A stretch of 12,765 bases of DNA from a virus (IMGVR_UViG_2721755658_000004), one strand, 5' to 3'. Shown: positions 1,702 through 2,475, counted from the first letter of the stretch. Made by a program: numbers and translations. Notes: generated by a model not told the origin, from the letters alone.

Positions 1702-2475
1702 ATGGATATTACTGAGTTTCCTTCTGGAGTAATTGAACACCTTGGCTGGTATGTATACCGATTGATTGATCCTAGGGACGGAAGCACCTTCTATGTAGGG
1801 AAAGGCAAAGGTAACCGCGTATTTGCCCATATGCGCGGTGAAGTGGCAGCGGCTGATGATGACGAGTTACTGAGCAACAAGCTAAAGCAAATCAGAGAAA
1901 TAAGATTAGCGGGACTTGAAGTTATCCATGTCATCCATCGACATGGAATGACTGATGAAAAGACGGCGTACGAAGTTGAAGCAGCACTTATTGATGCCTA
2001 CCCTGGGTTAACGAATATCATGAATGGTGCTGGCAGCAATGAATTCGGCGCCGCGCATGTCAAAGAGTTGATAGCAACATATCAACCCGAAACCATAACA
2101 TTTCATCATAAAGCATTAATGATTTCCGTTAACAGAAGTGCAAAGGATTCAGAGCTTTATGATGCGGTTCGATTTAGCTGGCGCATTAATGTCTCTCGCG
2201 CCAGCCAAGCAGAAGTCATTCTTGCTACTGTAAGGGGGATCGTTCGAGGGGTTTTCATTGCTGATAAATGGCTCAAATCAACACGTGAAAATTTCCCTAC
2301 GATGAAATACTGGGACGAGGATCCGGACTTTGAGGCAACACAAAGTTCTCGCTATGGTTTTGAAGGTCGAGAAGCCCCACCTGAAATAGCAAATCTTTAT
2401 CTTGGAAAAAAAATACCAGATGAATTAAGAAAAAAAGGAGCTATGTCCCCGGTCCGTTACTCACCTAATTTTTGA
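1702..2475 (+). CDS. GIY-YIG nuclease-domain protein (N-terminal about 100 aa) fused to an uncharacterised C-terminal domain of about 150 aa; 257 aa from ATG 1702 (an in-frame TTG at 1651 would give 274 aa)
   Basis: Motifs in order: VYRL (GIY), YVGKGKG (YIG), GNRVF (catalytic Arg), [11 protein letters not shown] (Glu), LTNIMNG (Asn). No recognisable SD at either start. Lower-GC moron-like gene convergent with pin. Confidence 0.7.

Follow-up and report, generated by a model that had tools for sequence, protein, structure and literature searches.

The prophage remnant, its tandem block, and its genes

The window, i.e., the whole stretch of 12,765 nucleotides that was analyzed, corresponds to positions 1773649-1786413 of the Escherichia coli strain H7 genome (NZ_CP010171.1). 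On its plus strand it contains an open reading frame for 257 amino acids (1702-2475; ATG at 1702, TGA at 2473-2475), which RefSeq lists for the same coordinates as 'LEM-3-like GIY-YIG domain-containing protein' (WP_000355479.1). The neighboring gene encodes a pinE-type serine invertase (2536-3090, minus strand; predicted as an open reading frame and named pinE in RefSeq) with 94% nucleotide identity to pinE of the K-12 prophage e14. The two genes are convergent, as had been noted in the first-pass annotation of this DNA, with 60 bp between the stop of the nuclease gene and pin.

Both genes belong to a block of two tandem units of 4228 bp (390-4619 and 4618-8847, together spanning 390-8847) that are 100% identical, which bears out the earlier statement that the nuclease gene is present in two copies by duplication. 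Each unit holds a flxA-like gene, a hypothetical gene, the nuclease gene, pin, and a tail-fibre remnant. The second copy of the nuclease gene (5930-6703, plus strand) is 100% identical to the first at an offset of 4228 bp. RefSeq lists the gene twice, and a third copy is located elsewhere in the source genome. The block is faced on either side by IS1, namely by the right end of one copy at the start of the window (1-393, plus strand; IS1A annotation, ending in ...CATTACC) and by a complete, inverted copy (8844-9611, minus strand). The IS1 sequence at the window start forms a perfect inverted repeat of 394 nt with 8843-9236, and both copies point their insB-proximal ends inward, with the ends at 387-393 and 8844-8850. 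The junction of the two units (4609-4626) reads ...ATACTGG-GGTACC-CAGAAATAG..., with GGTACC at 4616-4621, and on either side of it stand the sequences that also adjoin the two IS1 ends. The 6-bp palindrome GGTACC joins the terminal 3 nt of one IS1 end to those of the other (GGT...ACC). This arrangement suggests that the whole IS1-bounded element may have been tandemly duplicated and that a head-to-head IS1 pair, which would have formed a perfect palindrome of 1.5 kb, may have collapsed to a symmetric scar. Alternatively, the duplication could be an assembly artefact, as the arrangement occurs in only this one assembly of 5426; at least 80% of the window is held by only one of the 5426 genomes.

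The tail-fibre genes of each unit are the remnant of an invertible segment (3117-4548 in the first unit), of which an intact version is found together with baseplate and contractile-tail genes in strain EC6622. The remnant comprises a gp53-like fibre tip (3117-3509, plus strand) and tail fibre assembly genes on both strands (3531-3971, plus; 3943-4548, minus). No inverted pair of crossover sites was found around the segment (3040-4640), and the constant part of the fibre gene breaks off at ~4615. The outer crossover site was probably lost with the truncated fibre gene, and the segment is probably frozen. Beyond the right-hand IS1 lies an iss/bor-type lipoprotein gene (9694-9987), and the same part of the window (8844-12765) also holds a lysis cassette of Rz/Rz1, a GH24 lysozyme, and a holin, as well as an orphan type II-like DNA methyltransferase gene (11369-12421; PADLOC MTase_II, E=2e-152). 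Scans of the window for Rfam families and tRNAs returned no hits. Head, tail, and integration modules are absent from the surrounding prophage. Because no head or tail genes are left between the lysis genes and the tail-fibre tip, the prophage represents an IS1-eroded remnant, and the morphogenesis genes were therefore removed by IS1-associated deletion.

Identity and domain structure of the nuclease

The protein encoded at 1702-2475 matches the PADLOC model of the defence system PD-T4-3 (PDLC04031) almost from end to end (E=2.2e-140; residues 1-256 against positions 1-255 of a profile of 256) and PHROG 5356 over its full length; an NCBIfam search with the whole protein returned no family. [quoted passage not shown] The window protein and the crystallised O157:H7 protein (9U75) are identical at 254 of 257 residues (98.8%) and are distinguished by the substitutions E55D, Q169K, and N197H (residue of the window protein first). 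Asn197 (nt 2290-2292) is invariant in 37 homologues and is replaced by His in the crystallised protein.

PD-T4-3 was discovered by functional selection against phage T4 (PMC9519451, as cited in PMC12923530), with ECOR68 as its original source according to PMC12923530, and was renamed CMoRE by Liu et al. (Nat Commun 2026; PMC12923530). We conclude, with a probability of roughly 95%, that the gene at 1702-2475 is an intact CMoRE (PD-T4-3) gene for a modification-dependent anti-phage nuclease, carried in a hairpin-bounded cassette beside pin; no sequence evidence that contradicts this explanation was found in the window protein. The proposal of a single-gene defence or restriction-like nuclease in the first-pass annotation is thus in agreement with the published function of CMoRE/PD-T4-3. 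The novelty that it implied is not, as CMoRE has already been characterised and crystallised; the system is known in mechanism and structure, and nothing is new in its identity. The earlier reading was made from the sequence alone and can serve as a positive control, since it predicted a modification-dependent restriction enzyme, the logic of the genomic slot, and the decisive experiment, all of which were already in print (discovery in 2022, mechanism and structures in 2025-2026). The practical gain is a corrected annotation of a protein whose RefSeq name still refers to its LEM-3-like GIY-YIG domain.

[quoted passage not shown] Seven of its residues, Y17, Y19, Y31, R39, H43, E93, and N105, are invariant in an alignment of 37 family sequences. 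Among them are the three tyrosines of the 'GIYxY-YIG' motif (Y17, Y19, Y31), which CMoRE requires (PMC12923530), and the conserved Arg, Glu, and Asn of GIY-YIG nucleases (R39, E93, N105); conservation of the Arg and Glu is also stated in PMC12923530, whose text gives no residue numbers for them. The list of catalytic hallmarks drawn up earlier was right in its motifs, except that the Glu is E93 and not E91, the Asn is N105 and not N108, and Y17 has to be added. All residues named in PMC12923530, i.e., Y17, Y19, Y31, R80, V92, L96, and Y127, are found at the same numbers in the window protein. V92 and L96 lie at the interface of the tetramer that is the active form of CMoRE (PMC12923530); as predicted interface residues, both are present in the window protein, and among the 37 homologues L96 is invariant and V92 at least 90% conserved.

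Within the nuclease domain, four acidic residues in a row (D52-D53-D54-E55; 1855-1866, plus strand), DDDD in the crystallised protein, form the lid that corresponds to the autoinhibitory loop of CMoRE. The loop with four consecutive acidic residues restrains the enzyme, and its 4A mutant is toxic and cleaves ordinary DNA (PMC12923530). In the family alignment, the lid is acidic in close homologues and less acidic in homologues from jumbo phages.

The remainder of the protein (residues 126-257; 2077-2472, plus strand) is the modification-sensing domain, a reader of 5hmC/5ghmC, and includes the 5hmC contact residue Y127. The first-pass annotation had called this domain unrecognised, and none of the Pfam or NCBIfam families indeed matched the C-terminal ~130 amino acids; the domain has, however, been defined experimentally in the literature. 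The accompanying suggestion of a modified-base reader is in line with the published behavior of the family, whose C-terminal domain binds 5hm-dCTP via the main chain of Y127 (PMC12923530). The same study states that its search yielded no structural homologue of this domain, and the ligand is bound at the edge of the domain rather than in a pocket (PMC12923530).

CMoRE acts on DNA that contains 5hmC or 5ghmC, which it binds and cuts at CN11/N9G with 2-nt 3' overhangs, and spares C and 5mC DNA (PMC12923530). The experiment envisaged in the first-pass annotation, a challenge with T-even phages that carry modified cytosines combined with catalytic mutants, has likewise been published for the family, and defence is lost in mutants of the GIY-YIG active site (PMC12923530). 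Deletion of PD-T4-3 in the native host NILS69 sensitised the strain to Tevenvirinae (10.1101/2024.12.20.629700), and a 48%-identical homologue from Capnocytophaga breaks down T4 and Mu DNA that is modified, leaves T4-GT7 DNA intact, and is modification-dependent both in vivo and in vitro (PMC12366544). As the function of the family is established in the literature and the window protein is nearly identical to a characterised member, we infer that the window allele would cut DNA with 5hmC or 5ghmC, would leave C and 5mC DNA uncut, and would protect against T-even phages without abortive infection.

Experiments on the 98.8%-identical O157:H7 protein established the mechanism, which, given this degree of sequence identity, presumably applies to the window protein as well. 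The C-terminal domain would bind 5-hydroxymethyl- or glucosyl-hydroxymethyl-cytosine, with the hydroxyl group hydrogen-bonded to the main chain of Y127, and a dimer would read two modified cytosines ~21 bp apart. The N-terminal GIY-YIG domains (Y17/Y19/Y31, R39, E93) would then cleave both strands at CN11/N9G with 2-nt 3' overhangs, the tetramer presumably being the active form. On unmodified and 5mC DNA, the acidic loop D52-E55 would lie over the active site and keep the enzyme off. The expected outcome is direct degradation of incoming T-even phage DNA and no abortive infection.

The cassette, its slot beside pin, and its distribution

The CMoRE gene is bracketed by imperfect direct repeats, as was noticed in the first reading of the sequence. 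Local alignment and a shared core motif define a ~40-bp hairpin repeat with an upstream copy at 1478-1516 (5706-5744 in the second unit; z=-3.8) and a downstream copy at 2498-2537 (6726-6765 in the second unit), between the stop of CMoRE and the stop of pin. Four copies of the core TTCTTGCATAYGACGTG were counted in the window, two per duplication unit, compared with 0.01 expected by chance, and both repeat copies fold as hairpins (z about -3.7 to -3.8). Homology to other prophages begins, on the left, at 1492-1505. The downstream hairpin overlaps the pin stop and is followed by T-rich sequence on both strands, as judged by eye, and it may terminate both convergent genes. A terminator scan of the window called none at the hairpins, as their loops of more than 8 nt are over the limit of the scan.

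The genome of E. coli B1S11 carries one hairpin copy that joins the equivalents of window 1317-1513 and 2498-3229 directly (locus L006, 2841-3730). This single hairpin represents an empty site, and the CMoRE cassette is thus an indel of ~1.02 kb that is bounded by the duplicated hairpin. The possibility that three B1S11 genes to the left of pin are alternative cargo was rejected, as PADLOC gave only a marginal WYL match and the alignment identifies an empty site. The K-12 prophage e14 is homologous to the window from window position 2535 onward, the stop codon of pin, and its mcrA gene follows directly after pinE. The slot had already been compared to that of mcrA in the first-pass annotation, and the alignment places the boundary at exactly this point. 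Two unrelated type IV enzymes, McrA and CMoRE, are alternative cargo at one position.

The CMoRE gene is present in 838 of 5426 complete E. coli genomes (15%), and in at least 565 of the 838 it adjoins a pinE-type invertase in the same convergent layout. The identical nucleotide allele occurs in at least 19 other genomes. A single copy of the unit is found in EC6622, in a prophage of the e14/SfV type that looks intact and has genes for a baseplate and a contractile tail (ymfQ, gp47-like, tape measure); the unit lies at its tail-fibre end. The window cassette, too, is placed directly downstream of pin at the tail-fibre end of a prophage of this type. The CMoRE module is also found in a lambdoid prophage beside a type II restriction-modification system (homologous to window 1492-2536) and in an argW prophage (window 1505-2807). 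Neighbors vary from locus to locus and include a flxA-like gene with pin, AraC with a pin remnant, and a type II restriction-modification system with a tail fibre assembly gene. Only window ~1492-2537 is common to these loci, and the lack of a conserved partner gene points to a single-component system. All contexts are prophages or otherwise mobile. An apparent case of plasmid carriage, a hit to pMTY18781-4, was rejected because chromosomal pao genes lie beside the same prophage end. In E. coli EC71 (locus L004, 1918-5774), where the cassette is part of a lambdoid prophage at ssrA, it adjoins a type II restriction enzyme and a DNA cytosine methyltransferase; such a pairing is compatible with CMoRE ignoring 5mC.

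Expression of CMoRE in strain H7 is presumed rather than read from signals in the DNA, since a consensus scan called neither a plus-strand sigma-70 promoter upstream of the gene (1517-1701) nor a terminator at the hairpins. Promoter candidates picked by eye in 1640-1690 match the consensus at only 8 of 12 positions and are not claimed. About 200 bp of upstream sequence move with the gene between prophage contexts. The APEC O1 homologue is weak from its native promoter (PMC12923530), so that the level of expression can limit the phenotype. Just upstream of the CMoRE start, 24 nt (1652-1675) are 88% identical to 10024-10047, the 3' end of the Rz gene, and read on the minus strand ...YINEHCK as compared with ...YINEQCR*. 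This stretch may be a relic of an earlier position of the cassette downstream of a lysis module.

The absence of head, tail, and integration modules, the lack of a called consensus promoter, and a duplication that is unique to one assembly could also be taken to mean that an intact gene is neither expressed nor useful in a decayed, IS1-bounded fragment and that its duplication is incidental or artefactual. We regard such a silent relic as quite improbable, because neither copy of the gene is damaged and its upstream region moves along with it. The two copies are moreover identical, the same nucleotide allele is maintained in the at least 19 other genomes, and activity of homologues has been seen both from native promoters and in a native host.

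The reader domain, related enzymes, and further architectures

The reader domain also bears on the alternative raised in the first-pass annotation that the gene is a free-standing GIY-YIG homing endonuclease of the Seg/I-TevI type, which would spread by cutting cognate sites that lack the gene. The nuclease domain is of the GIY-YIG type, the N-terminus weakly matches PHROG 314 'homing endonuclease' (E=0.002), jumbo-phage homologues are named 'putative homing nuclease', and the cassette behaves as an indel between direct repeats in several prophage backgrounds. The C-terminal half, however, contains no zinc-finger, NUMOD, or helix-turn-helix domain in Pfam searches; the fold there is that of the CMoRE modification reader and not one of these DNA-binding modules. 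The 98.8%-identical protein leaves unmodified DNA uncut and has no strict sequence specificity. The gene is located outside introns and inteins and interrupts no conserved gene, but sits in a variable accessory slot past pin, and the 'homing' names in phage records are transfers based on the GIY-YIG domain only. Homing is already largely refuted by published biochemistry, and we consider it very improbable for the window gene. A housekeeping nuclease for DNA repair or structure-specific cleavage (UvrC/Slx1/LEM-3 type), as might be suggested by the LEM-3-like domain as best Pfam match and by UvrC as the closest structural neighbor of the CMoRE nuclease domain (PMC12923530), has a negligible chance of being correct for an accessory gene that is present in 15% of E. 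coli genomes, always prophage-borne or mobile, that shares its reader domain with McrB systems, and whose published phenotype is phage defence. A database match to a well-characterised enzyme, which had been anticipated at the outset for a homing or housekeeping nuclease, does exist, but the enzyme is a defence nuclease.

As a CMoRE protein, the window protein has the length, domain order, GIYxY-YIG motif, acidic lid, Y127, and interface residues of CMoRE/PD-T4-3, and its gene differs by the tandem duplication inside an IS1-bounded prophage remnant. [quoted passage not shown] McrA of e14 occupies the same slot, directly past the pinE stop at the tail-fibre end of e14-type prophages, and is likewise a single-protein modification-dependent nuclease. 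McrA targets 5mC and 5hmC DNA, whereas CMoRE ignores 5mC. The two proteins are unrelated (HNH versus GIY-YIG) and use different reader domains; relative to pinE, the mcrA gene has the same orientation and the CMoRE gene the opposite, convergent one. PvuRts1I and AbaSI act on the same substrate class as CMoRE, 5hmC and 5ghmC. Enzymes of the PvuRts1I family cut ~11-13/9-10 nt 3' of the modified cytosine, leave 2-nt 3' overhangs, and prefer two symmetric modified cytosines, a geometry very similar to that of CMoRE. Their Vsr/PD-(D/E)xK-like nuclease and SRA-like reader are, however, both missing from the window protein. McrBC differs from CMoRE, a single protein with its own nuclease domain, in being a two-gene, GTP-dependent translocating system, although the N-terminal DNA-binding domain of certain McrB homologues is itself homologous to the CMoRE reader.

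A fold search with the reader domain returned ASCH (2KKU, 5GUQ), YTH (YTHDC1, Mmi1), and EVE proteins (THYN1 with 5mC DNA, PH1033), the EVE-HNH type IV enzyme VcaM4I, and the N-terminal domains of archaeal McrB proteins, with SRA proteins and AbaSI at lower ranks. Foldseek retrieved the same families at sub-threshold values (E 0.08-0.5, TM 0.3-0.46). Pfam, which includes profiles of the PUA-like clan (EVE/YTH/ASCH/SRA), gave no hit of any kind for the domain in 24 members at E≤10 and none for this domain of the window protein at E≤1. VcaM4I and other type IV enzymes with PUA-like readers (EVE-HNH; YTH/EVE-McrB) have no detectable sequence relation to CMoRE and remain at TM <0.5. The fold matches hint coherently, though weakly, at a remote PUA-like relationship of the reader.

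A search with the reader alone against 1.84 billion representative sequences yielded 963 clusters. Architectures were counted with local phmmer for the best 150 of the 963, of which 65 combine the reader with a CMoRE-type GIY-YIG domain, 56 have at most 190 amino acids (stand-alone domains or fragments), and 29 have other layouts. The latter include an HSDR_N domain (PD-(D/E)xK) followed by the reader, a DSPc phosphatase followed by the reader, and the reader followed by AAA_5; the reader also occurs in proteins of 600-950 amino acids that have no other recognisable domain and in stand-alone proteins of ~120 amino acids. It forms the N-terminus of McrB GTPases and the C-terminus of the HSDR_N proteins (such as P0014) and of a dual-specificity phosphatase; examples of reader-bearing proteins outside CMoRE are P0112/P0271, P0014, P0007, P0045, P0106, and others. 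P0271 (locus L009, 6001-8645) has 40% identity to the window domain over its whole length (E=4e-26), possesses an McrB lid domain, and is encoded directly upstream of mcrC in a defence-type island. The association of the reader with McrB and an adjacent McrC provides independent contextual support for a role in reading DNA modifications. The PD-T4-3 model (PDLC04031) also scores proteins devoid of a GIY-YIG domain (P0002, P0018, P0019, P0023, P0052, P0096, P0102, P0106, P0119, and P0145) at E=1e-28 to 1e-47 through their reader half (profile positions ~127-255). Since the reader half alone is enough for a match, proteins of other architectures can be among those labelled 'PD-T4-3' by automated annotation.

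It is tempting to propose, at slightly below even odds, that the reader is a very divergent PUA-like (YTH/ASCH/EVE) member and a freely shuffled module, and, separately, that the pin-proximal hairpin is an exchange point for type IV cassettes in e14-type prophages, where it would be occupied by mcrA, by CMoRE, or left empty. If this tentative proposal is true, the shuffled reader would mark out a larger group of modification-dependent systems that are as yet uncharacterised.

Full-length CMoRE homologues with 38-45% identity are also encoded by virulent jumbo phages, such as Serratia phage Moabite (gp009; locus L007, 2501-3265), Pseudomonas phage OBP (gp165; locus L008, 2492-3253), 2050HW, Kodama, N1M2, and others, where they are annotated as 'homing nuclease' or hypothetical. 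These homologues keep Y17, Y19, Y31, R39, E93, N105, and Y127, and their lid is much less acidic. They may act as phage-versus-phage weapons against competitors with hypermodified DNA.
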